From assembly GCA_964371095.1 (NCBI GenBank), contig CAYJMJ010000011.1, positions 1,590 through 65,589 on the forward strand: a stretch of DNA of 64,000 nucleotides, read 5' to 3'. The first letter of the stretch is position 1, and the number at the start of each line of letters is the position of its first letter. This DNA is from an uncultured Dehalococcoidia bacterium (GTDB taxonomy: Bacteria > Chloroflexota > Dehalococcoidia > DSTF01 > JACRBR01). Under the pieces are notes generated by a model. That model did not search any database and was not told where the DNA came from. It saw nothing but the letters and a program-made list of their open reading frames with translations. Shown piece by piece: positions 47,662-64,000 of this stretch. Both the position numbers and the translations under genes were made by a program.

Positions 47662-47982
47662 ATGTCTCACGTCACCATCGAGGATGTCGCCAAGACTGTC
47701 ACCGTCCAGGCCGGCGCCGTAGTGTCGAAGGTCATCCACCGCGACGCCGAGGTCGACGTCACCGTCTTCGCCTTCGATGCCGGCGAGGGGCTCACCCAAC
47801 ACACAGCCTCTCGCCCAGCGATCGTCCAGGTGCTCACCGGGCGGTTGCAGTTTACGGCCGACGGTGAGGACGTGAATGCAGTGCCGGGCACCTGGATCTA
47901 CATGAGCCCGGGCGCCCAACATGCCATCGTGGCCGTCGAGCCCACTGTGATGCTGCTCACGCTTCTGCGGCCGGAGCGTTAG
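47662..47982 (+). CDS. Cupin-domain protein
   Basis: 106 aa. GGAGGAGG SD before ATG 47662. Cupin-like beta-barrel motif region GTWIYMSPGAQHAIVAVEPTVM. Confidence 0.7.
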   Translation: MSHVTIEDVAKTVTVQAGAVVSKVIHRDAEVDVTVFAFDAGEGLTQHTASRPAIVQVLTGRLQFTADGEDVNAVPGTWIYMSPGAQHAIVAVEPTVMLLTLLRPER

Positions 47983-48118
47983 GCGGCGGACTTGGCGACG
48001 CCCCCGTGACGCCGGAGTGTCCTAGACGCGCGCCCGGAGGCATCGCACAATTGTGCCATCGTGTTCGCGTACGCCCTCATGCCGTCGACCCCAACCCCAG
48101 CACCGAGACAACTGCCGC

Positions 48119-49939
48119 TTACCAACTGCCGCCACCTCCGCCGCCACCGCCGCCACCGGAAGAGCCGCCGCTGAAGCCGCTGCCCCCGCTGCTCCCCGGC
48201 GTGCTTGCAATTACGCTCGACACCGACGACGAGAACGTCTCGAGGCTGCGCGAAAACTCGCCGGCGGAGAACATCACGCCCGGGGTCGTACCGCCGTACC
48301 ACCCCTGCAGCGCCGCTGTTGTGTCGATGTCGCGGAAGACGCGCGCCCACTTTTCGACGCAGCCGAAGATGATCGCGAACGGCAGGTACTCGGCGAAGAT
48401 GTTCGCCTGCTCTGCGAAGTTCGCCCTGTCCTTTTCCGCCGTGTCGATGAACAGCCGGAAGCCCAGCACGCGGCGCAGCGCCTCGCTCCCCTTGGCGGTG
48501 CGCCGCGGCATCAGATGCGCCGTCGCCGCCAGCAGCAGCCCGACGACCGCGACTGGGGCACCGATCATTGCCCCGCCGAACCAGCGTCCCAGCAGGTAGC
48601 CGAACCCGACGCCGGCCGCGACTATGATGAGCCCGGCGACGCGCCAGATCGTCCGGGTCGAGTCCGGGCTCGCGCCGAACCAGCCGTTCACCACGGCATC
48701 GTCATACAGTTCCCGCTCCGCCGTCTGCAACGAATCCGCATACTTCGTCTTGAGCGCCGACAGGTCGACCTCATTCCCAGTCTCGAACAACCCGTCGAGG
48801 ATCGTTCGCTCGAACGTCTTCAGGGTTGCGGCGTCCTTCATCTTCGTCAGGTGCCAGTCCTTCTTGCCGAAGATCCACGTCTTGTCCTTCTCGTCGATCT
48901 TGAGATGGCGGCGCACGGCCAGATCGATGATCGTTGCTGTCACGTCCTTCGTGTCGGCGCGCTCATCGAGCAACACGCCCATCTGGGCCGGACGCAGTCC
49001 GTCGGGCGGTGTGTATTCGACGACCACTGGATCGCGATGAAACAGTGGCCGTGTCCGCTGCTCGGGATTCTGCGTCAGGTAATAGATGCTGGTATACGTG
49101 CGGTCCCGTCCGGTGCGCCACCAGCCGTACAACAACGCAGCGAGCCCGATCACCAGCAGCACGCCCGCCACGATGAGGATCGCCGGCTCGAACGAGAAGT
49201 ACCGCTCGAACGCGTTCTTCGGCTTGTCGATGAGCCGTATCTGCGGCGGCGCGACGGTGCCTTTGGGGATCGCGACCGTCACCGTCAGCTGCTCGCCGCT
49301 CCGAAACGCGCGCGTCGCGCTGAACAGTGCGCCTTCGCCGGTATCGGAAACGAGGCTCCGGCACGCCTCCGTAGATCCGGTGGGACCTTCGAAGCAGGCG
49401 ATGCGCGGATACACGTCGCCGGGTATAAGAACGGTGGCCGATGCGCGGGTCGTTGGCGCGGGCCAGTCTGCCCCGTTGACGTTCCAGTACAGCTCGTCGT
49501 GATCTGTGAACGCGTTGAGCGCGTCGGTGATCCGGTACGTGATCCGGTACGACTGCTTGCCGCTGATCGTGCGATTGGCGTCGCCTATCTTGAGGCGCAC
49601 GTTCGCGCCGTTGCGGCTCTGCTCATAGTTCCACGGCCTGCCCGCGGCGTCGGTCACGGATAGCGCCTGGAATCCGTAGATACGGTTACTCTTCGCGTCG
49701 TAGTCGTACTCGATCGGGATTTCGCGGAAGATACCGTGCTTATCGAGGGAGCCGAAGTCGACGTCAATCGCTTCCACGATCAGCAGACTGCCGTCCGTCT
49801 GGACGTCGATGTTCGCCGCGAACCTGTCGATCGTCCAGCCTTCGTCCGCGGCCGCGTGGCGCGCCGAGATACCGGCGGAGACCGCCGCCGCAGCCGCGAT
49901 CAGCGCGAAGATGGCCACGGCGACAAGATGCTTCACCAC
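48119..49939 (-). CDS. DUF2207-family membrane protein with a Gly-rich C-terminal tail
   Basis: ~606 aa. N-terminal signal/TM, a central TM, further C-terminal TM helices. Ends ...SGGSGFSGGSSGGGGGGGGGGSW, typical of DUF2207. Confidence 0.75.
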   Translation of the reverse strand: MVKHLVAVAIFALIAAAAAVSAGISARHAAADEGWTIDRFAANIDVQTDGSLLIVEAIDVDFGSLDKHGIFREIPIEYDYDAKSNRIYGFQALSVTDAAGRPWNYEQSRNGANVRLKIGDANRTISGKQSYRITYRITDALNAFTDHDELYWNVNGADWPAPTTRASATVLIPGDVYPRIACFEGPTGSTEACRSLVSDTGEGALFSATRAFRSGEQLTVTVAIPKGTVAPPQIRLIDKPKNAFERYFSFEPAILIVAGVLLVIGLAALLYGWWRTGRDRTYTSIYYLTQNPEQRTRPLFHRDPVVVEYTPPDGLRPAQMGVLLDERADTKDVTATIIDLAVRRHLKIDEKDKTWIFGKKDWHLTKMKDAATLKTFERTILDGLFETGNEVDLSALKTKYADSLQTAERELYDDAVVNGWFGASPDSTRTIWRVAGLIIVAAGVGFGYLLGRWFGGAMIGAPVAVVGLLLAATAHLMPRRTAKGSEALRRVLGFRLFIDTAEKDRANFAEQANIFAEYLPFAIIFGCVEKWARVFRDIDTTAALQGWYGGTTPGVMFSAGEFSRSLETFSSSVSSVIASTPGSSGGSGFSGGSSGGGGGGGGGGSW

Positions 49940-50227
49940 GCCATCATGGGATGAACCCGCCTGAGCCGCAAACGCGCCTCGCATCGACCAGCGCGCACAC
50001 GCGGGCGGTCTCCTTCCGCGACGCTGCAAATCCCCACCATCATTAGGAATTCGGGATGGCCCCGAGTGCGTCCCGGGGCTTGTCGAGCGATTCGCTCTGC
50101 GGTTCGCTGCTGAACAGATCTAGGGGATCGGGCAGGGTGCCGAACAATCCGCGGCGCCAGGCGGACTTCCTGCCTCGCCGCCGCGTGCCGACATCTCCAT
50201 AGGCGGATAGAGACCGACCAAGCAGTG

Positions 50228-52321
50228 CTAATCGGCCAGCGTCCACCGCCCGAAGGGTTTCTGCACCGGCCCTCCGACCTCGAAGATGGCGTCGTCCACC
50301 TCGTCGTTGTTCGGTAACTCATTGCCGAACTCCAGCTGATGGCAGGCCGGGCTGGCCAGGCCTGTCTTCTTGCCGGCCGACCAGAACAACTCCGAACAAC
50401 TCTTCACCACGAGCAGGCTCTTGGCGATGTCCGACGACGCTGAAGACGGACCGTGTCGGAGACGATAGATGAGAATCACCGACTGGCTGGAGATCGGTTC
50501 GTACTCCGCGCCGTCTACACCGAACGCCTTCAGTTGCTCCGGCTTTGCGTTGTCGTCTCTGGCCTTGCCCGATTGCTCGATCTGCCAGGCCTCGTGCCTG
50601 CGCCACATCCACCAGGCGTCCCGCGCCGAGCGAGCCTTGTCCGTTAGCGAATCGAACATCGTTTCGGCGGCGTGGGCCACGAACACTCCGTTCATGGGAA
50701 TCATCCAGCCGAAGAAAGCCTTGGCCTTAAACGCGTCTTTCAGCGATGAACCAGCGCTCGATGAGCAGGTGTTGAGAAACACAAGCGTCTTGTCGAAGGA
50801 GACGGACTTCTGATCCCTCAACATCTGGAAGAACGCGGGAGTCACCCAGACCACCGCGCTCCCGTTGAATTCGGCACCGACGACGAGGGGCGCATCGCCG
50901 GATCCGTCCCAGGTCAGCCCGGACATCGTGACGAGCGCCTTCACGATGTCCGCGTTCACGTCGGGGCTGAGCTTGCGCCCGTTGACGGCCTTCTTCAGCT
51001 CGGGCCTGTCGAGGTCGAGCAACCCCATGTACATCCACGATTGGCTGTGTAGGGTGTACCAATGGTTGATGTTCGTGCCGTGCGACATGACGTAGAAGAC
51101 GCCGTACCGGTTCGTCGTGAGGAACTTGGCCAGCTCTTCAACGGCCTGATCGCCGGTGTGTACGGGCTTCCCGTTCTCCGTGGCACCGAGGATCGTGTCG
51201 ACGGTGTAGCCGGCGGTTGTCAGATCTGCTTGCATGCATTCGACGCTGGGCCCCACGGCGGCCTTGAAGCTCTCGTAGACCACGACCTTCCCGCCGTGAC
51301 CACGAAGCGGGTGCGCGAGCTCGTACGCGGGCGCGACCAGCAGGGCGCGTTTGGGCGGCGTGTCCGCGCTGGTGATCGGCTTGGGCTGCGCCTGTGCCTC
51401 ATACAGGCTGACGCCGTAGCCTCCCGCCGGATTGAGACCTTCACGTCCTGGTTCCGGAGGCCGCGATGTTGAGGGCGAGTCTGGGAGGGAGCCGCATCCG
51501 CTCGCAGTGCTGGAGGGGGCAACCGGCTTCGGCCGACGCGCCGCGACCGGCTGCGAGGACACCAGCAACTCCGACGACCGCGAGTCGATGGCCGCGGATG
51601 CCGCTGGATCGAGATCCGCGCGCTCCGTCACGACGTAGTCGCCCGTCCCGTCCTTGTACTTGATGGTGATGTTGAGGCCGTTCGGGGAGACCGTGGCATC
51701 GGCCACGTTCGGCAGCCCTTGAACGAAGGCGCGGGTCTCCTGCACAGCCTGCGACCACGTCTCGCCCTTCTCGTTGACCGCCTCCACGAAGCTCTTCGTT
51801 GCCGCGGCGCCTGCGTCCTTCTTGAGGTCCCAGCGCCCCCAATCGCTCTTCAGCGTCGCCGACGACGCAGGGCTGGCGGCGCTCTTCGCCTGCCCATCGG
51901 TTCGCTTCCATGTCGAGGAGCCAGCGCCCTCACTGAACATCTTCACCGGGATCTCGAGCGTCTCGCCGTCGAACTTGTACGGCTGATCGGTGGCCGATAT
52001 CCCCTGATCGCGAAACTCGATGGTCATGCGCCCATCGTGAATGCTGTAGGTGCCGGTGTCCGTGAGTTCGTCGCCGGCGCTCACTGCCTTCACGGACAGC
52101 GTCCCGTTGTCGAGCACGAGCGTGACGGTTGCGCCGGACTTGGGGCGAGTCCCGTCGGAATCCTGGACCGCAACGTATGTCCCGCCGATGTCGGTCTCGG
52201 AGACGGGCTTGCCAGTACCGGACGGGCTGGCCTTGCCGCCTCCGCAGGCGCCTAAGACCAAGGCAAGCGAGACGATGGCGCAGAGGACAAGCCGAGGACG
52301 GCGTCCGGTCGGAGAGGGCAT
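50228..52321 (-). CDS. Large lipoprotein, hypothetical (~697 aa)
   Basis: Lipobox LVLGAC after the signal peptide. Start MPSPTGRR at 52321. No recognised domain. Contains the motifs YVMSHG and LNTCSS. Confidence 0.75.
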   Translation of the reverse strand: MPSPTGRRPRLVLCAIVSLALVLGACGGGKASPSGTGKPVSETDIGGTYVAVQDSDGTRPKSGATVTLVLDNGTLSVKAVSAGDELTDTGTYSIHDGRMTIEFRDQGISATDQPYKFDGETLEIPVKMFSEGAGSSTWKRTDGQAKSAASPASSATLKSDWGRWDLKKDAGAAATKSFVEAVNEKGETWSQAVQETRAFVQGLPNVADATVSPNGLNITIKYKDGTGDYVVTERADLDPAASAAIDSRSSELLVSSQPVAARRPKPVAPSSTASGCGSLPDSPSTSRPPEPGREGLNPAGGYGVSLYEAQAQPKPITSADTPPKRALLVAPAYELAHPLRGHGGKVVVYESFKAAVGPSVECMQADLTTAGYTVDTILGATENGKPVHTGDQAVEELAKFLTTNRYGVFYVMSHGTNINHWYTLHSQSWMYMGLLDLDRPELKKAVNGRKLSPDVNADIVKALVTMSGLTWDGSGDAPLVVGAEFNGSAVVWVTPAFFQMLRDQKSVSFDKTLVFLNTCSSSAGSSLKDAFKAKAFFGWMIPMNGVFVAHAAETMFDSLTDKARSARDAWWMWRRHEAWQIEQSGKARDDNAKPEQLKAFGVDGAEYEPISSQSVILIYRLRHGPSSASSDIAKSLLVVKSCSELFWSAGKKTGLASPACHQLEFGNELPNNDEVDDAIFEVGGPVQKPFGRWTLAD

Positions 52322-52595
52322 GCGATCGGCCTTTGCGCGAAAAACCCCACCGCCTGGAGCCAAATCGGGTTTGGCTCTTCGTGTCGCGCGGTGCCGCGCC
52401 TAGCGATGCACGGCTAGCGTACTCGAACCCGAGCATTCGTGATAGAGCAGGATGACGGCCCGCAATTCAGCACGCGGTGCCCTGTCGCTCAGCCGATGAC
52501 AAACACCATGACTTCATCGTGTTGGCCCTTCGTATACGCGCACCGACGAGTCAGTCGAAGGGGGAACCACAAATTGGTCTCGTTCACGAAGTTGT

Positions 52596-53195
52596 TCACA
52601 GTCTCCGATCGGCGAGCGTCGTCGCGAGCTTGCGCATGCCGAGGCGCATCCGGCTCTTCACCGTTCCGACAGGGACGGTGCCCTCCGCGGCGATCTCCCG
52701 GCGAGTCAGCCCCGCGAAGTACGCCATCTCGATCGCGCGACGCTGTTCTCCCGGGAGCAAGCGCAGCGCATCCCGGACGTCCCGAGCCTCGTCCGCGCGC
52801 TCGGTCTCACGCTCCGGGCCGTCGGTTACGTATGTCGCGTCGGCGCAGTACGTGCCCTCGGTCCGCTGGCGCCTGGCACGCCTCCGAATGCCATCGATCG
52901 ACGTGTGCCGGGTGATCGTCAGGAGTAATCCCCGCATTGAGCCGCGCGACGGATCGAACTGCGCGGCGCCGGTCCAGAGTTTGAGAAATGCGTCCTGCAC
53001 CGCATCTTCGGCTCCCGGTCCGTCACCGAGGATCTGGTACGCGAGCCTGTAAGCGGCGCCACGATGCGCACCGTACGCAGCGACGAGAGTCGTCGGATCC
53101 AGGGCGGCAGGAACGGCCGGGCGCCAGCCGTTCACGGCTGGCCTATTGCCGGGCCAGGGTCGCAATGGGGTGGTTTCGATGGTTACGGTCGTCAT
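52596..53195 (-). CDS. ECF-subfamily RNA polymerase sigma factor
   Basis: Region 2 DAVQDAFLKLWT. Region 4 LPGEQRRAIEMAYFAGLTRREIAAEGTVPVGTVKSRM. Confidence 0.85.
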   Translation of the reverse strand: MTTVTIETTPLRPWPGNRPAVNGWRPAVPAALDPTTLVAAYGAHRGAAYRLAYQILGDGPGAEDAVQDAFLKLWTGAAQFDPSRGSMRGLLLTITRHTSIDGIRRRARRQRTEGTYCADATYVTDGPERETERADEARDVRDALRLLPGEQRRAIEMAYFAGLTRREIAAEGTVPVGTVKSRMRLGMRKLATTLADRRL

Positions 53196-53664
53196 ATTGA
53201 CCTCGGTTGGCGCGCACGCGCAACCAGCAGTGGGATCCCGAAAAGGGTAGGCGGAGAAGACGACGGGTCCAGGTCGGCTAGTTTGCTTCTTGAGAGTCGA
53301 GAGGGAGGCGCCGTCGCCTCTGCCGTGGATGCCCTACCGATGCGGGCTTCTGTCCGACTTTGGACCCGTACGGGGGTGTACGTGGTCGTCGGACTTCCCA
53401 TGCACCATACGCTCTTACCGGTCGGTACGCAAGATGACAAATGGAGCGTACGCTCGCGAACACTCGGAAATTGGGCAAATCAGCCGGGAGGGCGGTGCGT
53501 ATTCGGGAACGGGACTGCCGCGCGGTCATCTCGATCGCATCGCCGGTTCCGTCGCCGCTGAGTGCGAATCGACTCCAACAGGCATGCACGAGTGATCCGC
53601 CAAGCCTTGAGGCGCGGATAGAAGCATCCGTGAACAGACAACAGGCGCTCGGTGGAGGGATCTA

Positions 53665-53847
53665 ATGACGCTGGCGGAAATATGCTTCATCATCGCGGCG
53701 GCGGCGTTCGTGGTCGATGCTGTCCCGTTAATTGGGATAGCGTTCCCCTTCAAGCTCCTCCCCGCTGGTCTTGCCCTCCTGGCCTTGGGACTCGCATTGG
53801 GAGCTGGCCTCGCGGCCGATCTCGGCATCGATGGGAAGGTCCTGTGA
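53665..53847 (+). CDS. Small hydrophobic protein (60 aa, 2 TM), hypothetical
   Basis: GGAGGGA SD 6 nt before ATG. High-moderate GC3. Confidence 0.4.
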   Translation: MTLAEICFIIAAAAFVVDAVPLIGIAFPFKLLPAGLALLALGLALGAGLAADLGIDGKVL

Positions 53848-54506
53848 ACCGCGGAGTTCAATCGGCTCAGGAGCGGCCGCTGTGCCATGGATCCGCGTAG
53901 CCTTACTGCTCGGCGCCGCCCTCGCTCGAAGAACGACCTCGCGACAGGGCATCGCCCGCGAAGCCGGTAGTCATGCCCGGCGCGTCACGTTCGGAGCGGT
54001 GGCTTTAGTGCCGGGATCGCCGCGGCGGTGATCCATCCGGGCGCGATGCGCGGACTGGAGTAGCACAGAAGCGCCTGCATCGGCCGAGGATGCAGGCGCT
54101 TCTGAAGCGGACAACAGCAATGCGGATCGACGAGCACCCTGTGTTTCAGGTGCTGCGGCCTGAACCGCGCCTCCAAGTTGGTCGCCGCTACCCACAGGCG
54201 CAAAGATGGGCTGGCATCAGGCCCCGCCTCCGTCAGCCAACCCATCCGTGAAGAGCTCCTTTTCAGGGCTCACCAGCATTGTCCACCCGTGGATACTGGG
54301 TCGTCTGTCCGCCGTCGAACCGACACCGGCTCCAGCCCGGACGGACGCCCCGAGATGCACGCCGCCTCGGTCCCGAAAGCGGACCATACTCCGTTACGTC
54401 AGTACGCAAGCAGACACACTGTTCGTCCGCTCGAGGACAGTGCGGAACCTCGGCGACTCCGCCTCAGACCCGTCGGGAAGTGCGGCTGTCGCTGACGAGT
54501 TCGAGG

Positions 54507-55298
54507 TCAGGCGGATGCGTGTTCGCCCGACGAAAGAAGCCGCCGCCCACCGGAGGCGGCATGGCTGCGCCCGGGCAGCCGGTCAAAGCGCTCCCGGATG
54601 AGACGATAGCACTCGCAGCTGGCGGCCTCGAGGCCCGGGCGGTCCAGCACCGTGACCTTGCCGCGGTGGTACGTGATGAGATCCGCGGCCTGGAGGGCTT
54701 CGGCGGCTACGGAAACGCTCGGCCGGCGCACGCCGAGCATCTCTGACAGGAAGTCATGCGTCATCGGGAACTCGGCGGCGTCCACGCGATCGTGCGTCAT
54801 CAGCAGCCAGCGCGCGCAGCGCTGGACCATCGGATGCATGCGATTGCACGCCGCCGATTGCGCGACTAGGGCAAACAGCGCGACGGCGTAGTACCCGACC
54901 ACCTGGCGTAAGACAGGGATCTGCGCGACGTGCTCGCGAAAACGCGCGCTCTCCATCCGCATCGCGGTGCCCGGAACCTGGATCAGCAGCCTTGAGTCAG
55001 ACTCCTCCAGGCCAAGGAACGTGAAGAGATCGGCCAACCCTTCGTTGCCGATCGTGGCGATCTCGACCGCGACACCGTCTTCCATCACCGTGAGCATCGA
55101 GATGACACCGGTATTGGGGAAGTAGATGTAGGGCATCTTGTCGCCCGGCTCGTGGAGCGAGAGACGGAACTTGAGCGGTACCGCCTTCAGGTCCGGGAGG
55201 ATGCGTTCATAATCCTCGGGCGGGAGGGAGGAGAGAATTCGGTTCGCGACGATCCGTCGCGACGCGGTGGATGTAGGCACTGGTGCACGCCCTTTCAA
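54507..55298 (-). CDS. Crp/Fnr-family transcriptional regulator (cNMP-binding + HTH)
   Basis: cNMP-binding region followed by a C-terminal HTH (MTHDFLSEMLGVRRPSVSVAAEALQAADLITY). Confidence 0.8.
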   Translation of the reverse strand: MKGRAPVPTSTASRRIVANRILSSLPPEDYERILPDLKAVPLKFRLSLHEPGDKMPYIYFPNTGVISMLTVMEDGVAVEIATIGNEGLADLFTFLGLEESDSRLLIQVPGTAMRMESARFREHVAQIPVLRQVVGYYAVALFALVAQSAACNRMHPMVQRCARWLLMTHDRVDAAEFPMTHDFLSEMLGVRRPSVSVAAEALQAADLITYHRGKVTVLDRPGLEAASCECYRLIRERFDRLPGRSHAASGGRRLLSSGEHASA

Positions 55299-55690
55299 AC
55301 CGTGACGTTTCGCGGTTCAGTGGCGAGTGCGACGGTGGACGGGCTCTGAACCGCGGCGGGCTTTGTCTGGAGGCTCCGGATGGCGGTCGCAACCAGCTCC
55401 GAGTCCTGCGCGGAACCGACCCGCTGGCCGAGCGGAGACGTGCGGATGAGATTGAACTGATGCAGGAACCAGAATCGCGCTCCCATCTGCCACCGCGTCT
55501 CAAGCAGCGCCGAGTACTGAACGGCGTTGTTCACCAGCATCACCGTTCGACGGCCCCGGTCGAAGTAGTATCGAAACAGTGCGTCAGGCCGGGTCGCCCA
55601 GTCGACGACCAGCTGGCCGGAGGACCGTCCCAGATGCGAGGTGACTTCGGTGAGCTCCACTCCCTGTTCATCGAGCAGCGTGACCTTCAT
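55295..55690 (-). CDS. Hypothetical protein, translationally coupled (ATGA) to the downstream Crp/Fnr gene
   Basis: Start MKVTLLDEQGV with a GAGAGAGA SD (the ORF track extends to 55831). Confidence 0.5.
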   Translation of the reverse strand: MKVTLLDEQGVELTEVTSHLGRSSGQLVVDWATRPDALFRYYFDRGRRTVMLVNNAVQYSALLETRWQMGARFWFLHQFNLIRTSPLGQRVGSAQDSELVATAIRSLQTKPAAVQSPSTVALATEPRNVTV

Positions 55691-56189
55691 AGCGTCTCTC
55701 TCTGGTGACATGATATTGCGGATGCGAACTGGTGTACTTCGCTCCGGCATTTCGGCTGGAGCATCGAAGACGCGGTGCCAGAAGGCCTGTCTCCGCCGAT
55801 TACGCCCGTCGCATGAGCAGCACGACCACAACGATGAGCAAGATCAGGACAAGTGCACCGCCACCGATATACATGAAGCCTCCCACGATGGGCCCCGCGT
55901 GAACACGCGCGACTACCTCTATCCGTCCGGCGGGACACGATGGATCACTCGCCGAGAGATGCCGCGCCACACCAGGCGATACACAAATGGTAGGCATCGC
56001 CCCCTATCGCCGGTCTCACCGCAGCCGAAACCGGCGTTGCTGTCCCGTGGCGAAGGCGTCCGAGGCCGTCGCCTGAGCCTGACCAACTGGACGAACCTGA
56101 ACCGTGGGCGTCTTGTTACTTGCCCATGAGGCGTCACGTCACGCCACGGCGACGTTAGGCTCGCCGCACCAGCCCCCGATGCGGTCCTG

Positions 56190-56345
56190 AGCGCCCGACC
56201 TGCGACGCCGCCTGGGAACGCGAAGAAGGCGGTAGGGCCGTGCAGTGATCCACTGTCGGTCGGGCGGCGTATAGAAATATCCGTGTGAGAGACACGGAGC
56301 AGAATCCCCCTCTCGCCCGCCCGCCCGGGCCGAGAGGGGGAGCCT
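56190..56345 (+). repeat. Copy A of a ~150-nt conserved structured intergenic element (GGAAC block, TATAGA -10-like box, hairpin CCGTGTG-agaga-CACGG, 10-bp GC hairpin CCCCCTCTCG...CGAGAGGGGG). Precedes a small ORF and the APH/phosphatase genes
   Basis: ~80% identical to 58770-58920, with compensatory changes in hairpin 1. Confidence 0.5.
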
Positions 56346-56450
56346 CGAATAAAGCGGGTGCCAGTTCCAGGAACTGGCGTGCGCATGCTGCTACTGCGCG
56401 GGCGCTTCATATCGCACGGTCATGCATCTTGAAGGAGGCAATCAATAATA

Positions 56451-56669
56451 ATGAAGGCGCCACTCACCTCGGTTGGCGGCAATGACGAAATGAACGTCCG
56501 CCTGACTTGGCTTGAGATCGAAGCCGTCTCGCTTGGGCTTCGAACGTTGCTCATCACCCAGCCACACGACCAGGCGCTGTGCGGAGTGGCAACTGCAGGG
56601 TTGGCAAAGCTGCCTGAGGTCCTTCCGCCAGATGGCCAGTGGACCGCTACCGAGGCGAAAACAACATGA
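56451..56669 (+). CDS. Small hypothetical protein (72 aa) downstream of element copy A
   Basis: Strong GGAGG SD plus AT-rich spacer before ATG. GC3 ~65%, below the window norm. Confidence 0.35.
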   Translation: MKAPLTSVGGNDEMNVRLTWLEIEAVSLGLRTLLITQPHDQALCGVATAGLAKLPEVLPPDGQWTATEAKTT

Positions 56670-56842
56670 ATCTGCGATCGACGCTATCGGACTGAGGCCG
56701 GGCTCGAGCTGCGAAACGCATCTCTCCGGTCGGCTCCGCGCTTTCTCCGGCCGCGCACTACGAAGATGCCACGCCGGACGTGAGTGCAGCCGAGCACCGG
56801 TCCTGGCGGCGATATCCGGAAAGGTTGGATTGCGCTCGGACG

Positions 56843-57850
56843 ATGATGCGGCGTGACGTCACACCTGCAGCCAAACTTCTCCGTCAAGATGCCGGCGCGG
56901 CACCGGTCGATCTCAACGCCCTCAACGAGATGTTGGCTCCGGCGTATCCCGGCCAGAGGGCCATCGCCGCTGAACTCGTGAGCGGCGGCTTCGCGAATAC
57001 GAGCTTCAAGGTGAAGCTGTCGAAACTGGACGCGACGGTCGTAATTCGCATCTACGTGCGAGACCCGTCCGCAGCCTACCGGGAGGCGTCGATCCTCGAG
57101 TTAGTCAAAGAGCGCGTGCCGGTACCGGAAGTCGTCTACGTCTCGCCCGAGGCACATGAACCGCATCCGTATCTCATCCTGCGCTGGATCGAAGGTAGCC
57201 CGCTCGACCAGCTCATCGAGGAGGGCACGCCCTCGGACGCCAGGCGTGCCGCCAGGGCGACGGGGCGTGTCCTCGCGAAACTCCAGGAGTTTCGGTTCGC
57301 GAGATCCGGGTTTTTCGGAAGCACGCTCGACATCCGGACCCCATTCCCATCGGAAGCTCGCGTGGTTGTCGGCGTCCTGGAGCAGTGCCTGTTCAGAGAC
57401 TCCGGCGAAGAGCGGCTGGGCGCCGCGCTCACGCAGCGCCTGTGGCGATTCGTGACGCAGCACGCGGGGATGCTCGACGTGGTCGAGCACGATGCGATGC
57501 TGGTCCATGGAGACTTCAACGGACTCAACGTCATCATCCGAAGTACATCTGACGGGCCTAAGGTAGCGGCCGTCATCGACTGGGAATATGCGCACTCGGG
57601 GACGCCGCTGGTAGATCTCGGCAGCATGCTCCGGCGTCCCGGCCGTGCCCTTCCCCCCTGGTTCGAGGAAGAGTTGATACGGGGCTATCGCCAGGATGGC
57701 GGCATCCTGCCGGAGAACTGGAGGCAGGTTGCGCGAATCGTCGACCTCGTGAAACTCTCTGCGTTCGTGAGGTCGCCGAACGCCGGCGAGGTCGCCGTGC
57801 AGAGCGTACGCGCACTCATTGAGGCGGCGTTGGCGGACGAGCGCCAGTAA
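56843..57850 (+). CDS. Aminoglycoside phosphotransferase (APH)-family kinase
   Basis: Brenner motif HGDFNGLNVI and DWEYA. Start MMRRDV at 56843 (the ORF track extends to 56780). Confidence 0.8.
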   Translation: MMRRDVTPAAKLLRQDAGAAPVDLNALNEMLAPAYPGQRAIAAELVSGGFANTSFKVKLSKLDATVVIRIYVRDPSAAYREASILELVKERVPVPEVVYVSPEAHEPHPYLILRWIEGSPLDQLIEEGTPSDARRAARATGRVLAKLQEFRFARSGFFGSTLDIRTPFPSEARVVVGVLEQCLFRDSGEERLGAALTQRLWRFVTQHAGMLDVVEHDAMLVHGDFNGLNVIIRSTSDGPKVAAVIDWEYAHSGTPLVDLGSMLRRPGRALPPWFEEELIRGYRQDGGILPENWRQVARIVDLVKLSAFVRSPNAGEVAVQSVRALIEAALADERQ

Positions 57851-58072
57851 GCCGCGATAAGCTCCGTCCGGGCCCACCCGCGAGTCAAGATTGGGCTGGG
57901 TATCATCGTCCGGATGCTACAGCGACGCGATGTGATTGGAGTCCGGGTGGTGCACGACGTTTCGAATCCGGAAGAGATCGCGAACGCCGACGTTGAGCAC
58001 CGTATCGATGAGCGGGCCGCGCTCGAGGGCAGGCCGAGCCCACTCGATGTCGCATTTCTATCGAATCGCGGG

Positions 58073-58714
58073 ATGGTCACGGAGGTCTTCCTCGTGCGCC
58101 ACGCGCACCAGCACCTTGACCTGGCTGGCTCGATCGGCGGATTTGTAGACCCTCCGTTGAGCGGCCTGGGAGAACAACAAGCGCAGCTCCTGGGCGCCGC
58201 ACTTTCGACCAGGACGATCGATGCCGTGTATACGAGCCCTATGCGGCGCGCAGTGCATACCGCGGAGGCGATCGCCCGCCACCACCGGATCGAGCCCGTC
58301 GCAATCGACGACCTGAGGGAGATCGCGATGTTCCGCGACGCACCTCAACACCTTTCGTCACTCGAATTCATGGGTACGGAGGCGCTGGCGACGCTGCGCC
58401 AGCGTTTCATCATCGAGAGATCGTGGGACGTCTACCCCTACTCGGAATCGAGCGCCGAGTTCCGGCGCCGCGTCATCAACGTCATCGAGACGATCATCAG
58501 CGACCATGCCGGCCGGCGAGTCGCCGTGGTCTGTCATGGCGGCGTGATCAACGCCTACGTCAGCCACGTGATCGGCTCGAAATACGATATGTTGTTCCGG
58601 CCCGCCCATACGTCGATCAGCATCGTCGCCTCCGCCGATGGCATCCACACGCTGTACACGCTGAACGACGTGCATCACCTCAGCACCGCCGACCGGGACT
58701 TCCGCAGCGTCTAG
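58073..58714 (+). CDS. Histidine phosphatase superfamily (phosphoglycerate-mutase-like) protein
   Basis: RHG-type motif VFLVRHAHQ, C-terminal catalytic His region VVCHGGVINAY. The ORF extends upstream to 57914. Confidence 0.75.
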   Translation: MVTEVFLVRHAHQHLDLAGSIGGFVDPPLSGLGEQQAQLLGAALSTRTIDAVYTSPMRRAVHTAEAIARHHRIEPVAIDDLREIAMFRDAPQHLSSLEFMGTEALATLRQRFIIERSWDVYPYSESSAEFRRRVINVIETIISDHAGRRVAVVCHGGVINAYVSHVIGSKYDMLFRPAHTSISIVASADGIHTLYTLNDVHHLSTADRDFRSV

Positions 58715-58769
58715 GGCCTTCGCCCCTGACGAGTGACGCCGCGCCTCCGCTTCGGCGCAGGGCGTCCGA

Positions 58770-58920
58770 GGCGTTCCTTCGGAACGCGCAGACGAACCTC
58801 GGGCGATGCGGTGATCCATTGCGGGTCGGACGGCGCATAGAAGTATCTGTGTGGGCACACACGGACCAGAGTCCCCCTCTCGCCCGCCCGCTCGGGTCAA
58901 GAGGGGGGCCCTTGACAACT
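58770..58920 (+). repeat. Copy B of the conserved structured intergenic element (CATAGA box, hairpin CTGTGTG-ggca-CACACGG, GC hairpin CCCCCTCT...AGAGGGGG). Lies upstream of the YggT-like gene
   Basis: Aligns with 56190-56345 from the GGAACGCG block through the GC hairpin. Confidence 0.5.
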
Positions 58921-59324
58921 GAGGTGCCGGCGGAAGGATCCAGATTTCCGGCAAGGAGTGCCATCGCGAAACGGGGTTGCAGGGTGGGCGCGAACGCGAC
59001 AAACGCAGCAATTGACAGGGGCGATGGACTCGAGGCCACGGTGAAGCTCGCCGCGGGATCGGGTGGCGGTGCGACGGTGGAAACGTCAGGAGCGCCTGCC
59101 GCGGCAAGCAACGCCCCGATCGGGCCTGCCCGTGCATTGTGGATCTACTTGAAGCACCGGGGCGTGCTGAACGTCGATGAGTTCCGCCGGACGAACGCGC
59201 GCGGTCTGTAGAAGTATGGGGGCCGGCTGCGCGGCAGGATCTCTGCCGCTCATCACGACCGGAACGCTCAGCCATCGAACGCATCCGCGCGCGGACGCAA
59301 TCACAGGCATCGGAGGAGGCTAAC

Positions 59325-59810
59325 GTGCAAACGAGAACAACACCGCAGAACGAGCCCGGCACCGTCGGCGACAACAGGGTCGTCGAGAGAGAAGTCGAAA
59401 CCGTTCGGACACGGCAGCGCGTGGCGGGAGCGCCGGGCGATGCCACCGCGCCGTCTCTAGCGGTCGTCAGCGAGCGGAGCGGACGCTACTTCGAAACGCT
59501 CCCGGAGCGCCTGGGTGCCGTCATGGTTGCGGTGCTCAGCGGGATCGAAGGGCTGATGGGCATTCGCTTCTTGCTCCGCGCGTTCGGCGCCAACCCGAAC
59601 AGCGGCTTTGTCGGGTTCATCAACGACGTGTCGTGGCCCTTCGTGCGTCCGTTCTCCAACGTCTTCAGCAACCGTTCGTGGAGCCAGGGGGTCGTCGAGG
59701 TCTCGACGCTCGTGGCGATGGGCTTCTATCTCCTGCTCTTCGCACTCATTGCCATGCTGGTCACCGCGCTGGCGCCGCGGTTGAGCGGGAATACGGGCGG
59801 CGGCGCGTGA
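59325..59810 (+). CDS. Membrane protein, possibly YggT family
   Basis: 161 aa. YggT-like block FINDVSWPFVRPF and C-terminal TM. N-terminal ~50 aa polar. Confidence 0.5.
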   Translation: MQTRTTPQNEPGTVGDNRVVEREVETVRTRQRVAGAPGDATAPSLAVVSERSGRYFETLPERLGAVMVAVLSGIEGLMGIRFLLRAFGANPNSGFVGFINDVSWPFVRPFSNVFSNRSWSQGVVEVSTLVAMGFYLLLFALIAMLVTALAPRLSGNTGGGA

Positions 59811-59987
59811 TTACGCGCGTTGGACATCGACGCCGTTGTCGACGCCGGGGTTGTGACGGACCAAGCTCCCCAGCTCCGTCGCAGCCTCGACGCCGGCAAC
59901 GGAGCCCGGCGTCCCGCCCGTGGGCACCCGCGAAAAGCCGCGCCGCGTACATCTCGCCAACCGGCCGGCCGTTGAAGGTGATTGTAA

Positions 59988-60149
59988 ATGGACGCGCTGA
60001 TCGTAACCGCCGCCGGCGCCGGGTTGGCACTGGCGATGCTCCTGATACCGGCGGTGGCCGTGGCCACCGTAACGCTGGCCGCGATATGCCTGTTCATCGG
60101 CACGAGCGCTGCCATTCTGGCCTGCGTCGTCGGGGTTCCGGCGGTTTGA
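59988..60149 (+). CDS. Small hydrophobic membrane peptide (53 aa), hypothetical
   Basis: GAAGGTG SD 8 nt before ATG. Not in the ORF track (<60 aa). MDALIVTAAGAGLALAMLLIPAVAVATVTLAAICLFIGTSAAILACVVGVPAV. Confidence 0.3.
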   Translation: MDALIVTAAGAGLALAMLLIPAVAVATVTLAAICLFIGTSAAILACVVGVPAV

Positions 60150-60489
60150 ACGCCACGCGACGGCCGGTCAGATCGTCAGTGTTACGCGGATGAAATACAG
60201 TCATCCGCGTCGCAACTCCCGCGTATGCCGCTCGGGACGACAATGCCTTCATATAGAGGTACACACCGTGTCATCCGAGCCGTCCGGACGCGGGATCGGC
60301 GCCGCACCGCCAGGGAGACGGCGACGATGCCGATGACCGGCGGGTCGATCAGGCCCCACCTTCATGACGATGATTGCTGGCGTCGAAGCCAGCTCCCGGA
60401 CAAGTCGAGAAGCGGAGGATAGCAGTTTGATTACGCCTCAATTCACCCGTGCGGCCCGAAAGGTCGCGATCTTCGCCGGCTGGCGACGC

Positions 60490-61437
60490 ATGGCCGTGTG
60501 CATCCTTGCGATGGGCGTTGTTGCGCTGGCAGTCGCTTCGACGCCGAGCGCGCGCGCCGCCTTTACGGTCACGCAGTGCGACGGTGTCGACAACCAGGGT
60601 GGCAGGGCGGTGCACTGCACCGTCGAGATCGATATCGCCACTGACACCGTCACCGTAACGTCCTGTACCGGGTTCGCAAATGCGGCCGAAACGTGTATTG
60701 GCCCGACCGTCTCGACGCAATCGGTGACGGCGATTGACCAGTGCAACGGCTCAGGTAACGGCGGCGGCGCGACCGTGACGTGCGACGTGATCATCACCGG
60801 CGCGTCGCCAGGCACCGCCTCTGTCACGATCAGCCAGTGCGTCGGCTCCGGACAGGGGGGCGGAACGCAGCCAACGACGGTTTGCATCCCCAGTTCGACA
60901 CCGAACGACACCTCGGCGACCATCCAGCAGTGCGACAGTTCCGGGAACGGCGGCGGCGGTACGGAGCGCGTCAAGTGCAGCGTGACGCCGGCTAGCACGA
61001 CGGCATCGGTGCCGACGATCAAGCAGTGCAACGGATCCGCGAATGGTGGCGGCGCGCTGGCGACCTGCACCGTCACCATCAGCAGCGCCGGCGCCGCGGC
61101 CGGCACTCCGACCGCCGGAGCCACGACGACGGCGACCGCTGGCAGCGGCTCGGTTACTCCGACCGCGGTCGCTGGCACCGCGACCGCCGGCACCGGCTCC
61201 CTTACTCCCACCGCGGTCGTCGGCACGGCGACGCCACGCGCTGGCTTGATCATCGTGCCAAACACCGGCAGTGGCGGTGCCGGCGCCAGCCACACCGGCG
61301 TCTCACTGACCCTGCTGGCTCTGGTAACGCTCGGGTTATCGGCGATCGGCAGCGCGATCGTAATCAGGCGCGGCCACACGCTCTCGCGTGCAGTCAAGCG
61401 TGTCGCCGTCATGGGCGACGACAGTCTGGATGCGTAG
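60490..61437 (+). CDS. Secreted Cys-rich repeat protein (5x QC-G-GNGGG-x-C-V units), Thr/Ala-rich linker and a sortase-like C-terminal sorting signal (VPNTG + TM + RRGH)
   Basis: Signal peptide MAVCILAMGVVALAVASTPSARA. Repeats QCDGVDNQGGRAVHCTV, QCNGSGNGGGATVTCDV, QCVGSGQGGGTQPTTVCIP, QCDSSGNGGGGTERVKCSV, QCNGSANGGGALATCTV. Confidence 0.7.
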   Translation: MAVCILAMGVVALAVASTPSARAAFTVTQCDGVDNQGGRAVHCTVEIDIATDTVTVTSCTGFANAAETCIGPTVSTQSVTAIDQCNGSGNGGGATVTCDVIITGASPGTASVTISQCVGSGQGGGTQPTTVCIPSSTPNDTSATIQQCDSSGNGGGGTERVKCSVTPASTTASVPTIKQCNGSANGGGALATCTVTISSAGAAAGTPTAGATTTATAGSGSVTPTAVAGTATAGTGSLTPTAVVGTATPRAGLIIVPNTGSGGAGASHTGVSLTLLALVTLGLSAIGSAIVIRRGHTLSRAVKRVAVMGDDSLDA

Positions 61438-61501
61438 GGGCTGTGCGCGCTGGGTGCCGCCGAATCGATGATCGGCGAACCCCGGAGAGAAAGGATTCCA
61501 C

Positions 61502-62050
61502 GTGACGTCGGAGGCGCACAATTCTCCGGGCACTCCCGTCGGCATAGATCTGCGAGATTGTTGGCCGGGGATGCCCGCCTACAGACAACGCCTCGTGCCG
61601 GTCGGCCTTGGCGCGGTTGTTAGCCTCGTTCTGATCGGTCTGTCGATCGTCGCCGGCGGCTTCGTGGCTCACACGGTGAATGCGGCGTTCTTCGGCGGCA
61701 GTCAAGGTCAGATTCGAAGCGGATCGACGGTGATCACCTCCAGCCAGCAGGGCAGCCTGAAGCTACAGAGCAGGCTCGTCGAGCAACGCCGCGAAGCCGT
61801 CGCCACGTATTCCGCGCAGTTCACGGAATTCAAAACCGCGACAGCTCGCCCACCGGGTGCGGTGGGTATCAACCTCAGTGCCCGGGAGATCAGGCGCCGA
61901 GACGATGTGCTGACCGGCCTCGTACTTCATTGCATCGATGCGGCCGACCAGTACAACCTCGCCGCGCAGACACTCTCGGCGACGCAGTTGCAGTCGGCCG
62001 GCCTGCCCGATCGCTACGTATGGGCAGTCGACTGCGCGCCGCGGCCATGA
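61502..62050 (+). CDS. Hypothetical membrane-anchored protein (N-terminal TM)
   Basis: 182 aa, high GC3, no recognised domain. Confidence 0.5.
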   Translation: MTSEAHNSPGTPVGIDLRDCWPGMPAYRQRLVPVGLGAVVSLVLIGLSIVAGGFVAHTVNAAFFGGSQGQIRSGSTVITSSQQGSLKLQSRLVEQRREAVATYSAQFTEFKTATARPPGAVGINLSAREIRRRDDVLTGLVLHCIDAADQYNLAAQTLSATQLQSAGLPDRYVWAVDCAPRP

Positions 62051-62131
62051 GGCGGACCGCGCAAACGAAGAAGCCCTGATGCCGCGCAGGACAAGCGCGG
62101 CGCACGAGAAACGTACGCAAGGAGGTGATGC

Positions 62132-62335
62132 GTGTCAGCCCGGACGATGAAGGCAAAAGGACAGGCGAAAGAGGTCAAGGGCAACGTGAAGCAGGCGGTA
62201 GGACGCGTCACCGGCAACGATCGGATGAAGGCATCCGGCCGCGCCGATGTGTCCGAGGGCAAAGGGCAGGCCGCACTTGGCGGCGCCGGCCAGAAGGTCA
62301 AGAAGATCGCGAAGAAGATCGTCGGTAAGCGTTAG
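62132..62335 (+). CDS. CsbD-family general stress protein
   Basis: KAKGQAKEVKGNVKQAVGRVTGNDRMKASGRADVSEGKGQAA, typical CsbD repeats. AAGGAGGTG SD before GTG 62132 (ATG at 62147 is an alternative). Confidence 0.75.
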   Translation: MSARTMKAKGQAKEVKGNVKQAVGRVTGNDRMKASGRADVSEGKGQAALGGAGQKVKKIAKKIVGKR

Positions 62336-62365
62336 AGCGCGGCCCATAGCAATCGGGGGAAATTC

Positions 62366-62635
62366 ATGGGAATTCTGGCTTGGATTGTCGTAGGGCTCAT
62401 CGCGGGCGTGGTGGCGAAGGCCATCATGCCGGGCGGTGGACCTGGTGGCATCATACTGACCATCCTGCTCGGAATTGCGGGCGCGTTCGTCGGCGGCTTC
62501 CTCGCGTCCTTGCTCGGAGTCGGCGAAGGCATCGCCAGGTTCGATCTGCGCACGATCCTCGTCGCAATCGGCGGCGCGATCGTGCTGCTGTTCGCCTACC
62601 AGGCGTTGACGAAGGCCTCCGGCAAACATGCGTGA
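62366..62635 (+). CDS. GlsB/YeaQ/YmgE-family stress-response membrane protein
   Basis: 89 aa. MGILAWIVVGLIAGVVAKAIMPGGGPGG... family signature. Confidence 0.8.
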   Translation: MGILAWIVVGLIAGVVAKAIMPGGGPGGIILTILLGIAGAFVGGFLASLLGVGEGIARFDLRTILVAIGGAIVLLFAYQALTKASGKHA

Positions 62636-62804
62636 CGGCCGTGGAGCGGGAGATGCGCGGCTGCACAATTAGCGGCGCAGTCCCCCGCCAATGTCAGGAT
62701 CAGATTCACCGCGGCAACGCACCTGTGTATCGGCGCGAGCGCGCCCATTCAGACATCGTGACCCGAGCGTCCCTTAGCGGGTCAACGACCAGAGGAGAAG
62801 AGCG

Positions 62805-62888
62805 ATGAGCAACAACATAATCCTGGTAGCCGTAGTGGTGTTTGTCGTTCTTGTAGTCCTGGGCGTGGTGACTGTCAACGTGCGATGA
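62805..62888 (+). CDS. Tiny hydrophobic peptide (27 aa, MSNNIILVAVVVFVVLVVLGVVTVNVR)
   Basis: GGAGAAGAG SD before ATG. Lower-GC codons. Below the ORF-track threshold. Confidence 0.25.
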   Translation: MSNNIILVAVVVFVVLVVLGVVTVNVR

Positions 62889-62924
62889 GCCGATCGGTGC
62901 CGAGAATCTCCCTGTCGACACACT

Positions 62925-63450
62925 GGCCCCGACCGCGAACCCTGATCCAGCCTGATTGCAGCTCTCCTGCTAGGCCCGGCGCCCGCCGGCGGAGCGCCGA
63001 GGTGCTGAACATGACCGCCGGCGACCTCACGCAGGAGGATGGCGTGGTCTGGTACCGCTATCGGGGTATGGGAAACGAGCAGGGCTAGCGGGAGCCGAAA
63101 CCGGCCTACGTGGCGCTCACTGCGGCGCTGTCGGCATTCGGGCGGGACATCGCGGCCATGTCCCCGGATGCCTCGTTGTGGCCGTCCAGCGGGGCGACCG
63201 AGGAGTGACGTCGGGCACGTTCTACGGCAACCTGCGCCGCTACCTGAAAGCAGCCGGGTTGCCGCCCGCCGGCGTACACATCTTCCGGCATTCCGCAGCC
63301 AAACTCCGCCGGGACGCGGGACAGTCGATCGAGAACGTCTCTCGGTTTCTCGATCACTCGTCGCTGCGGGTGACGTCGATCTACCTCAGGCGGCTGGAGG
63401 GCGAAGCCGACGCAAGCTGGGGGAAGGTCGCCGCGGCGATCGGGGTGTGA
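62925..63450 (+). pseudogene. 5'-truncated, frameshifted tyrosine recombinase (phage-integrase family) remnant
   Basis: Box I-like RRSAEVLNMTAGDLTQEDGVVWYRYRGMGNEQG* (62885..63088) then, in other frames, ...LTAALSAFGRD... and the catalytic C-terminus HIFRHSAAKLRRDAGQSIENVSRFLDHSSLRVTSIYL (63178..63450). Confidence 0.6.
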
Positions 63451-63544
63451 TCGGTGCCGGCTTGACGAGAGTGACACTCAGCCGTCGTCGGAATGCGCGA
63501 TAGGGCGTAGAATCGGTCTCTCTCTACATCGGAGAGGAGACGAA

Positions 63545-64000
63545 ATGGGTCACATCCGCCTCGGCAGACTTCCGAAGACGCTCGCATGGCGCGACGTCAT
63601 TGGCCTGCTCGACACCGAGCCTGATGATGCTGCATCGATAGCATCCGCAACCGTTCGCGCCGCGGATTCCCGTCTCCGCAAACTGGCGAGCGACCCGAGC
63701 CTCGCCTTTTCCGTCTGGCTGCTGGTCAGGGCCATGACGGCGGCGCGGAGGACAACTTCCATGCCGAACTGAACCGGCTTGGCATCCCCGTCTCCGGTGA
63801 GACCTCGTCGCTGGGCCTTGTCGCGCAGATCGGCGACCGCGCGCGAGATGAACTGGCGCAGTTTGGCACCTCCGGTCACGCTCGGGAGATCGCCGTTCAG
63901 TCGCTACGCCAGACGTTGCACGAGACGGTCCTCCGGGTGGGGGCGGACATGTTCATGGCCTCGTCAGAGGACGCTCGGCGGGCGCTGCGTTCTTACTCCA
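63545..64000 (+). CDS. Hypothetical protein, partial (runs off window end) with an apparent -1 frame switch near 63700-63770
   Basis: GGAGAGGAG SD before ATG 63545. Frame 2 ends ...SMPN* at 63772, while frame 1 carries high-GC3 coding ...EDNFHAELNRLGIPVSGETSSLGLVAQIGDRARDELAQFG... to the window edge. Confidence 0.4.

Follow-up and report, generated by a model that had tools for sequence, protein, structure and literature searches.

The window, a stretch of 64,000 nucleotides with a GC content of 67%, carries a gene whose product is a secreted, Cys-stapled, beta-rich protein of the DUF8253 family. Judged from its sequence, this protein is probably displayed at the surface and anchored to the wall or the membrane. 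Our verdict is that it resembles the surface proteins that are sortase substrates and has a variant of the sorting signal; we infer its processing by a sortase and its attachment to the wall. The features on which this reading is based, together with the neighbouring genes, are given in Table 1.

Table 1. Features of the DUF8253 gene, its product and the surrounding genes (window coordinates)
Feature	Position	Strand	Remarks
YggT-like membrane protein	59325..59810	+	syntenic, upstream
53-aa hydrophobic small ORF	59988..60149	+	conserved, upstream
Shine-Dalgarno-like GGAGGA	60414..60419	+	8 nt 5' of TTG 60427; read off the sequence
DUF8253 surface-protein gene	60427..61437	+	homologues with PF26781; start call on near-identical contig
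Signal peptide	60427..60558	+	basic n-region (R, R, K, RR), core MAVCILAMGVVALAVA, SARA/AF site; by inspection
DUF8253 domain	60562..61089	+	all-beta; 12 conserved Cys, six loops
Six Cys loops	60577-60618, 60664-60696, 60742-60783, 60838-60885, 60931-60978, 61027-61068	+
Disordered Thr/Ala/Gly/Pro stalk	61090..61254	+	residues ~201-255; low pLDDT
VPNTG pentapeptide, candidate sortase recognition motif	61255..61269	+	clade consensus xP[NDR][TV]G[SG]G
Gly/Ser-rich spacer SGGAGASHTG	61270..61299	+	between VPNTG and TM
Transmembrane segment (TM) VSLTLLALVTLGLSAIGSAIVI	61300..61365	+	by inspection; hydrophobic, 22 residues
Basic stop-transfer RRGH and ~19-aa cytoplasmic extension	61366..61434	+
182-aa single-pass membrane protein	61502..62050	+	all-alpha ectodomain, two conserved Cys; downstream
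CsbD	62132-62335	+	small stress protein, syntenic downstream
GlsB/YeaQ/YmgE	62366-62635	+	small stress protein, syntenic downstream
Tyrosine-integrase fragment	63178-63450		after GlsB

Coding strand and translation start

The earlier note on this DNA had placed the start of the gene at ATG 60490. This ATG is internal to a longer frame that runs from TTG 60427 to the stop at 61437 and specifies 336 amino acids, and a signal peptide beginning at ATG 60490 would have no charged n-region. From the sequence, a start at TTG 60427 appears more likely and displaces the former one, because it is preceded by GGAGGA, adds in frame the basic n-region TRAARK...WRR, matches the N-termini of two relatives (P0002 and P0005) and agrees with the start call in L088, a contig with 99.8% identity to the window. 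Near-identical contigs (99.6-99.8%) were found in two ENA assemblies. The N-terminal signal peptide that sortase substrates carry is recognizable by inspection (ARA/A site), and the AF2 model has a helix at residues 2-16 of this region. A Tat signal was considered and rejected, as the RR of WRRM is not conserved and relatives have RL or RF instead.

An antisense ORF of 324 amino acids (60438-61412) overlaps the gene and has a GC3 of 0.81, equal to that of the + strand gene; the GC3-based gene call in fact chose the antisense ORF. It could be argued that there is no gene here at all, high-GC DNA having left a frame open by chance, or that the antisense frame is the real one. Against this, the Cys pattern is kept on the + strand in hundreds of homologues, the + strand product belongs to a Pfam family and has a confident AF2 model, its gene shows conserved synteny, and the signal peptide, the TM and the Shine-Dalgarno-like sequence all lie on the + strand. 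As this strand holds the Cys pattern, the homologues and the signal and anchor architecture, the antisense ORF is best explained as a high-GC artefact; the chance-ORF or antisense reading is extremely improbable and already effectively refuted.

A Cys-rich repeat domain

Six Cys loops of the C-x9-14-C type follow the signal peptide. Five of them (C30-C43, C85-C98, C117-C132, C148-C163 and C180-C193, residues counted from ATG 60490) are QC-x-G-x-G-(N/Q)-G-G-G...C repeats. These are the five units that had been described before, and they are indeed mutually homologous: their scores exceed those of shuffled controls with z = 4.5-12.4, and the observed score was reached by 0-1 of 300 shuffles. The earlier tally had left out a sixth, divergent Cys loop, SCTGFANAAETC (C59-C69), which is second in order and only weakly repeat-like, with z up to 2.9 against the core units U3-U6 and 5.2 against U1. 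Units 3-6 are spaced at ~32 amino acids. In an alignment of 120 of the 688 homologues, each of the 12 Cys of the mature protein, like most of the loop glycines, is either invariant or conserved in at least 90% of the sequences.

The AF2 model of the domain is all-beta, with a block-mean pLDDT of 73-96, mostly above 90, over residues 21-200. The two Cys of a unit probably form a disulfide that closes it, a pairing that we infer. Neither sequence comparison nor Foldseek found a relative of the domain in the PDB, and as modelled the domain appears to be a new fold. Our default guess is a binding or structural role at the surface, as suggested by the conserved Gly/Asn loops, the Thr-rich strands and the exposure of the domain on a stalk. 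A pilin-like polymer was also considered and rejected, the DUF8253 domain having no conserved Lys in the alignment.

Family membership and distribution

The repeat had not been recognized as a known module when the sequence was first read. It is in fact catalogued, as PF26781 (named DUF8253 in Pfam), although the function of the family is uncharacterized and a literature search for DUF8253 returned no paper that mentions it. Our homologue search found at least 688 proteins; among the matches listed, PF26781 is precomputed on 120 of 120, with E-values from 1e-146 to 1e-29. Identity of the window protein to proteins with precomputed PF26781 is 66-95%, and it reaches 100% over 177 amino acids with a fragment that carries PF26781 (P0015). 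By homology, the window protein is a member of PF26781/DUF8253. The window protein itself had no match in Pfam or NCBIfam scans, and the Pfam set used was one without the PF26781 model; P0002, despite its PF26781 kinship, also matched 0 families in that set. The blank Pfam scan is therefore a gap in the library and not evidence.

Relatives occur at 223 loci among the GTDB species representatives, and some DUF8253 members have fn3 or DUF7507 domains added. The five closest relatives (66-78% identity) come from MAGs labelled Chloroflexia, Dehalococcoidia or Chloroflexota, and the remaining ones are nearly all from Actinomycetota, namely Acidimicrobiia, Microbacteriaceae, Frankiales, Mycobacteriales and Arthrobacter. 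The window protein shares the six-loop, 12-Cys pattern of the family, and its domain is in itself undistinguished; what sets it apart from the bulk of PF26781/DUF8253 is its place in a small Chloroflexota clade, which forms a separate long branch in a rough NJ tree, apart from the actinobacterial members. The homologues of the 182-aa gene next to it point to Chloroflexota as well, and we assign the window to a Chloroflexota soil bacterium, not to an actinobacterium or a firmicute.

The stalk and the C-terminal tail

The stalk is predicted to be disordered (pLDDT below 50 at residues 207-265), and its length and sequence differ even among close relatives. The tandem duplication formerly described in this Thr/Ala/Gly-rich region is real, with a period of 48 nt (16 amino acids) rather than the 45 nt proposed (TRF; 2.1 copies, 84% matches, 61132-61232).

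The C-terminus has the elements described earlier, namely VPNTG, a TM and RR. The hydrophobic span VSLTLLALVTLGLSAIGSAIVI is followed by RR, and the AF2 model has a C-terminal helix at residues 270-313. The pentapeptide has P, T and G, all three conserved among the clade members, and another residue in place of the Leu of LPXTG. Among 16 tails of the clade, P7, G10, G12 and G32 (in the middle of the TM) never vary and T9 is conserved to at least 90%, while the adjoining stalk is hypervariable; one member (L003) has PNVG in place of PNTG. That P, T, G and the GxG after them have been kept next to a hypervariable stalk supports the earlier reading of this region as a sorting signal.

The tail is long. 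VPNTG is followed by 55 residues up to the C-terminus, outside the range of 17-45 residues from motif to end that is used in sortase-substrate prediction (PMC4155245). This length results from the spacer of ~11 amino acids and the extension of ~19 amino acids past RRGH, which only part of the clade has, and in clade members that end at RRR the corresponding distance is 36 residues. The window protein did not match PF00746 (Gram_pos_anchor) or TIGR01167 (LPXTG_anchor), either as a whole (E <= 1) or with the tail alone (E <= 10). The full protein gave no match to GVDTG_CTERM (NF058571) either, and the tail alone scored 12.2 bits (E = 0.18) against this model, below its cut-off of 29; VPNTG aligns to the VDTG positions of NF058571, with its T-G on the T-G of the model.

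Tail types across the family

The tails of the DUF8253 family are always tripartite, and the motif varies with the host lineage. Most members from Actinomycetota have an LPXTG/LAXTG tail, a type that PF00746, TIGR01167 and the LAVTG model recognize. A second type, VPxGG-[VA]x[TA]G-GGSTSG, is matched by GVDTG_CTERM (36.1 bits for P0018; cut-off 29). Acidimicrobiaceae have VPVG-SPQTG-LGGA(A/S)H, Frankiales and Mycobacteriales have PAGLTGD, and the clade of the window has xP[NDR][TV]G[SG]G with a spacer of ~11 amino acids. Many DUF8253 members carry anchors of the LPXTG/LAXTG type that existing models recognize, which favours the sorting-signal reading. The GVDTG tail class is catalogued in NCBIfam and DUF8253 in Pfam, with no published work found on either, and our literature search on GVDTG and on Chloroflexi sortases found nothing useful. 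What the window contributes is a Chloroflexota clade whose motif is a further variant, recognized by no current model.

A profile of the tail, run against 1.84 billion representatives, showed that this type of tail also follows N-terminal regions of other kinds. It occurs, for example, on a Thr/Pro-rich secreted protein, where it reads LPNTGTG...RKR (P0127/L093), and on a fragment of unrelated sequence (P0129). When carried by non-DUF8253 fragments, xP[NDS]TG[STN]G tails score 18-23 bits with GVDTG_CTERM and 10-13 bits with LPXTG_anchor. Two further matches of the profile (P0130 and P0131) were rejected as sorting signals; they are repeated ISIHAPNTGSD peptides from repetitive DNA. The presence of one tail type on unrelated N-terminal regions argues for a recognized signal.

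Pairing with class F sortases

Class F sortases are widespread in Actinomycetota. We observed a class F sortase gene directly 3' of the DUF8253 gene in 15 of the 16 actinobacterial loci examined that have GVDTG or SPQTG tails. All 12 loci of the GVDTG type (L014, L023, L027, L036, L069, L071, L074, L076, L078, L090, L091 and L092) have the sortase ~10-70 nt downstream. Among the SPQTGLGGA tails, three of four (L060, L065 and L080) have an adjacent sortase, and in the fourth (L044) it is 6 kb away. Over all 15 adjacent pairs the distance is ~5-70 nt. The pairing was established from PF04203 in precomputed tables and from tblastn (45-62% identity). Full-length genes score 188-195 bits with NF033748, the class F sortase model (cut-off 166), and partial sortase segments from Acidimicrobiaceae score 156-164 bits. 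The sortase motif in these loci is LRL(L/I)TCGG, which a TLxTC-type pattern misses, so negatives from such a motif alone are weak. No class F sortase was found by tblastn near DUF8253 members with LPXTG/LAXTG tails.

These results show that the non-canonical tails most similar to that of the window protein stand directly upstream of a class F sortase gene, in agreement with the sorting-signal reading. They also bear on the proposal that the tail is recognized by a lineage-specific enzyme other than a sortase, a protease or transpeptidase comparable to exosortase, rhombosortase or archaeosortase. Consistent with this proposal, the NCBIfam entry GVDTG_CTERM is described as a 'sorting domain' with no enzyme named, the window tail falls below the thresholds of both LPXTG and GVDTG models, and to our knowledge no experiment has demonstrated anchoring by a sortase in Chloroflexota. 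Given the partnership of GVDTG and SPQTG tails in this very family with class F sortases, and with no candidate multi-pass sorting enzyme beside the gene in any Chloroflexota locus, we consider a non-sortase enzyme improbable and prefer a sortase as the processing enzyme.

It is conceivable that the GVDTG, SPQTGLGG and xPNTGSG tails form one class F sortase recognition class of the pattern [G/S/V]-[V/P]-x-T-G followed by a Gly-rich spacer, that DUF8253 is its dedicated cargo, and that the system was transplanted into Chloroflexota and its signal retuned there; we offer this as a tentative proposal that is more doubtful than not.

The genomic neighbourhood in Chloroflexota

The gene order around the DUF8253 gene is ECF sigma, Crp-like regulator, YggT-like gene, 53-aa ORF, DUF8253, 182-aa ORF, CsbD and GlsB. 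It is kept from ECF sigma to GlsB in four further loci (L002, L003, L083 and L084), and in the window an APH gene and a histidine phosphatase gene lie between the Crp-like regulator and the YggT-like gene. In three loci (L005, L006 and L081) the DUF8253 gene is placed elsewhere; in L081 it abuts an integrase. Beyond the tyrosine-integrase fragment, a serine recombinase and smpB were seen in L087.

The gene downstream (61502-62050) had been called a membrane-anchored hypothetical, and we arrive at the same description: its 182-aa product is single-pass and all-alpha, with an AF2 model that is helical (pLDDT above 90), and has no Pfam, NCBIfam or PDB match. The 40 homologues of this protein are all at least 52% identical to it; the only one with a labelled source is from a Chloroflexota MAG, and by tblastn the gene occurs in Chloroflexota loci only. 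It lies beside the DUF8253 gene in L002, L003, L083 and L084, and elsewhere in L005 and L081. A promoter and terminator scan, itself uninformative, found no terminator between the two genes. The possibility that the 182-aa protein is a cryptic sortase or sorting enzyme was rejected because its model is all-alpha and it has no conserved His; it also lacks LxTC.

As the earlier note had remarked, no sortase is evident in the window. Neither tblastn with a class F query nor a scan of the coding frames for H...LxTC...R found one in the 64 kb, the latter picking up only an ABC-F ATPase, an uncharacterized ORF of ~1,100 amino acids and out-of-frame ORFs. No sortase was found in the 8 kb past the window (L087). 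The same class F tblastn query likewise found none in the other Chloroflexota loci up to 10 kb from the gene.

The lack of a nearby sortase raises the alternative that the product is a plain C-terminally TM-anchored (type I) surface protein whose tail is never cleaved, its PxTG being a relic inherited from a sortase-bearing donor or conserved for some other reason. In line with this, the slot that holds the sortase in the actinobacterial cassettes is filled here by an unrelated helical membrane protein, the cytoplasmic extension past RR is longer and partly conserved, and the PNVG of L003 departs from the motif. A relic would nevertheless be hard to reconcile with the strong conservation of P, T, G and GxG in tails that are only 37-76% identical and stand next to a freely evolving stalk, or with the recurrence of the tail type on P0127/L093 and P0129. 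Housekeeping sortases, moreover, are usually encoded away from their substrates. We therefore regard an uncleaved type I protein as unlikely, if a serious contender, and retain a sortase-processed protein as the preferred reading.

Proposed mechanism and implications

In the explanation that we favour, with some reservation, the gene encodes a Sec-exported, stalked, sortase-anchored DUF8253 protein. The precursor would be exported by Sec and its signal peptide removed, and the DUF8253 domain of ~175 residues would fold outside the cell into all-beta units, each running from a strand through QC, a Gly/Asn loop and C to a second strand. The flexible, repeat-expanding Thr/Ala/Gly stalk would keep the domain off the cell, while VPNTG, the Gly/Ser spacer, the TM helix and RR would hold the precursor on the membrane side. 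Cutting after Thr and joining of the protein to the wall would then be the work of a sortase, most likely a class F-like one, whose gene lies elsewhere in the genome. Processing of the window protein by a sortase seems somewhat more probable than the contrary, and we put it no higher because the window and the 8 kb past it yielded no cognate enzyme.

Taken alone, the gene in the window adds another hypothetical surface protein to a DUF that is already catalogued. The pairing of DUF8253 with a class F sortase, which lies outside the window, is a concrete substrate-enzyme pair with a non-LPXTG motif that can be tested in vitro. This cassette matters because class F sortases have no known physiological substrates (PMC13251363); a 2026 study called their physiological roles unknown and reported a quadruple deletion without phenotype (PMC13251363). 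In the Chloroflexota clade the same cargo bears yet another variant of the motif, with no sortase gene beside it, and the clade thus provides a natural test of how a signal is retuned after cross-phylum transfer and of whether Chloroflexota use a sortase to anchor proteins to the wall. More speculatively, the Thr/Asn-rich Cys-stapled domain might be an ice- or surface-binding module, an idea prompted solely by the occurrence of cold-habitat genera among those genomes, isolates and MAGs alike, that have a named genus.

Comparison with known systems

The antifreeze protein of the insect Tenebrio is a disulfide-stapled, Thr-rich beta-repeat protein. Short repeats, regularly spaced Cys pairs and T-x-T/N strands are common to it and the DUF8253 domain, whereas the repeat is ~32 amino acids long in DUF8253 and 12 in the antifreeze protein, and neither sequence nor Foldseek comparison shows similarity of the DUF8253 domain to any PDB entry. 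This resemblance is only a lead by analogy.

With the LPXTG/LAXTG signal of class A and E substrates, the window protein shares the signal peptide, the PxTG core, the hydrophobic span and the basic tail. It differs in that the first position of the motif is Val, Ala, Pro or Gly in the clade, not Leu, and in that the spacer before the TM is longer. The (S/P)PXTG substrates of Clostridioides difficile SrtB are cleaved without Leu at the first position (PMC4155245); the organism, the sortase class and the cargo are different, and the parallel is an analogy only.

The closest likeness is to the tails paired with class F sortases. The window tail has the T-G motif, a Gly/Ser spacer of ~10 amino acids, the TM and the basic RR/RRR layout in common with GVDTG-CTERM (NF058571), and the same DUF8253 domain carries both tails; it is set apart by having no upstream VPxGG element and no adjacent sortase and by its score below the cut-off. 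The tail of Acidimicrobiaceae, SPQTGLGGASHS, closely resembles that of the window protein, VPNTGSGGAGASHT, and the spacer SGGAGASHTG is similar to the TGLGGASHS of the sortase-paired Acidimicrobiaceae tails.

Genomic context of the DUF8253 gene

The gene for the DUF8253 (PF26781) surface protein sits within a compositionally distinct segment of the window. The last ~18 kb (46000-64000) has a GC content of 0.64-0.66, compared with mostly 0.65-0.70, up to 0.73, in the preceding part (1-46000), and the GC3 of genes is ~0.74-0.84 in the former versus 0.85-0.94 in the latter. Gene calling based on GC3 was misled by a 324-aa antisense ORF, which covers the whole DUF8253 gene and has an identical GC3 (0.81); this ORF was rejected as a gene, being a typical high-GC shadow ORF. 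It is also evident that genes for integration or recombination are found close to DUF8253 genes in the window, in a near-identical contig (L087) and in another Chloroflexota locus (L081). These genes suggest that the DUF8253 gene adjoins the border of an island or a hot spot of integration. Elsewhere in the window, a c-di-GMP-I-GGC riboswitch is located directly 5′ of a secreted subtilase gene.

Coordinates of features in the window and in compared loci
Feature	Location	Coordinates	Strand	Remark
c-di-GMP-I-GGC riboswitch (RF03167)	window	43974-44064	+	65.8 bits; gathering score 59
Secreted subtilase	window	44129-45655	+	Peptidase_S8, E = 3e-41
DUF8253 gene	window	60427-61437	+	VPNTG tail
Antisense ORF	window	60438-61412	-	rejected
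182-aa membrane protein	window	61502-62050	+
Truncated tyrosine integrase	window	63178-63450	+	just downstream of DUF8253 neighbourhood
Region with serine recombinase and smpB	L087	11677-15159		after truncated tyrosine integrase
Region with integrase	L081	4580-9697		integrase directly adjoins DUF8253 gene
Protein O-mannosyltransferase (PMT)	L001	13329-15968		2.3 kb downstream of DUF8253 gene
Class F sortase	L090	10994-11686		beside DUF8253 gene
Class F sortase	L091	10976-11668		beside DUF8253 gene

The neighboring 182-aa membrane protein and its 40 homologs make up a narrow orphan family that has no Pfam entry; the sole source-named homolog is from a Chloroflexota MAG. The protein has two conserved Cys, and its ectodomain is a helical hairpin. 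In the closest MAG (L001), a PMT gene follows the DUF8253 gene, and the Thr-rich stalk of the DUF8253 protein could be a target of O-glycosylation.

Distribution of DUF8253

In a raw tally of the locus list, most of the named-genus genomes carrying DUF8253 (isolates and MAGs) belong to genera of cold habitats or come from samples of such habitats, including Cryobacterium (four), Glaciihabitans (two), Subtercola (two), Agreia (two), Lacisediminihabitans and Arthrobacter CAN_ strains, as well as palsa, Antarctic and glacier-stream MAGs. This raw tally of habitats, taken with the Cys staples and T-x-T/N strands, offers a lead toward a cold- or ice-related function. One 6.3-kb contig of 68% GC labeled Vibrio cholerae strain 35D (WNZI01000085.1, L034) also encodes a DUF8253 protein, and is almost certainly an actinobacterial contaminant of that assembly.

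C-terminal tails and class F sortases

Several tail types can be found among DUF8253 proteins. In Frankiales, Mycobacteriales and Jatrophihabitans, ORFs at six loci (L016, L017, L020, L022, L037 and L039) end in (F/P)xPPAGLTGD(S/T), followed by ~8-12 residues, a TM segment and R; no class F sortase was detected adjoining these six genes. A Microbacteriaceae subgroup of ~245-256 aa (P0081, P0085, P0087, P0094, P0098, P0102, P0104, P0120 and L075) ends in RLP(V/T)VSG without a TM segment or basic tail; the C-terminal signal here seems to be truncated or of another kind. At other loci, a gene with a GVDTG or SPQTG tail is part of a two-gene cassette, in which a class F sortase gene follows DUF8253 after a gap of 5-70 nt (L090, L091, L014, L023, L027, L036, L069, L071, L074, L076, L078, L060, L065 and L080). 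DUF8253 proteins with these tails are candidate dedicated substrates of class F sortases, enzymes whose roles have been described as unknown (PMC13251363).
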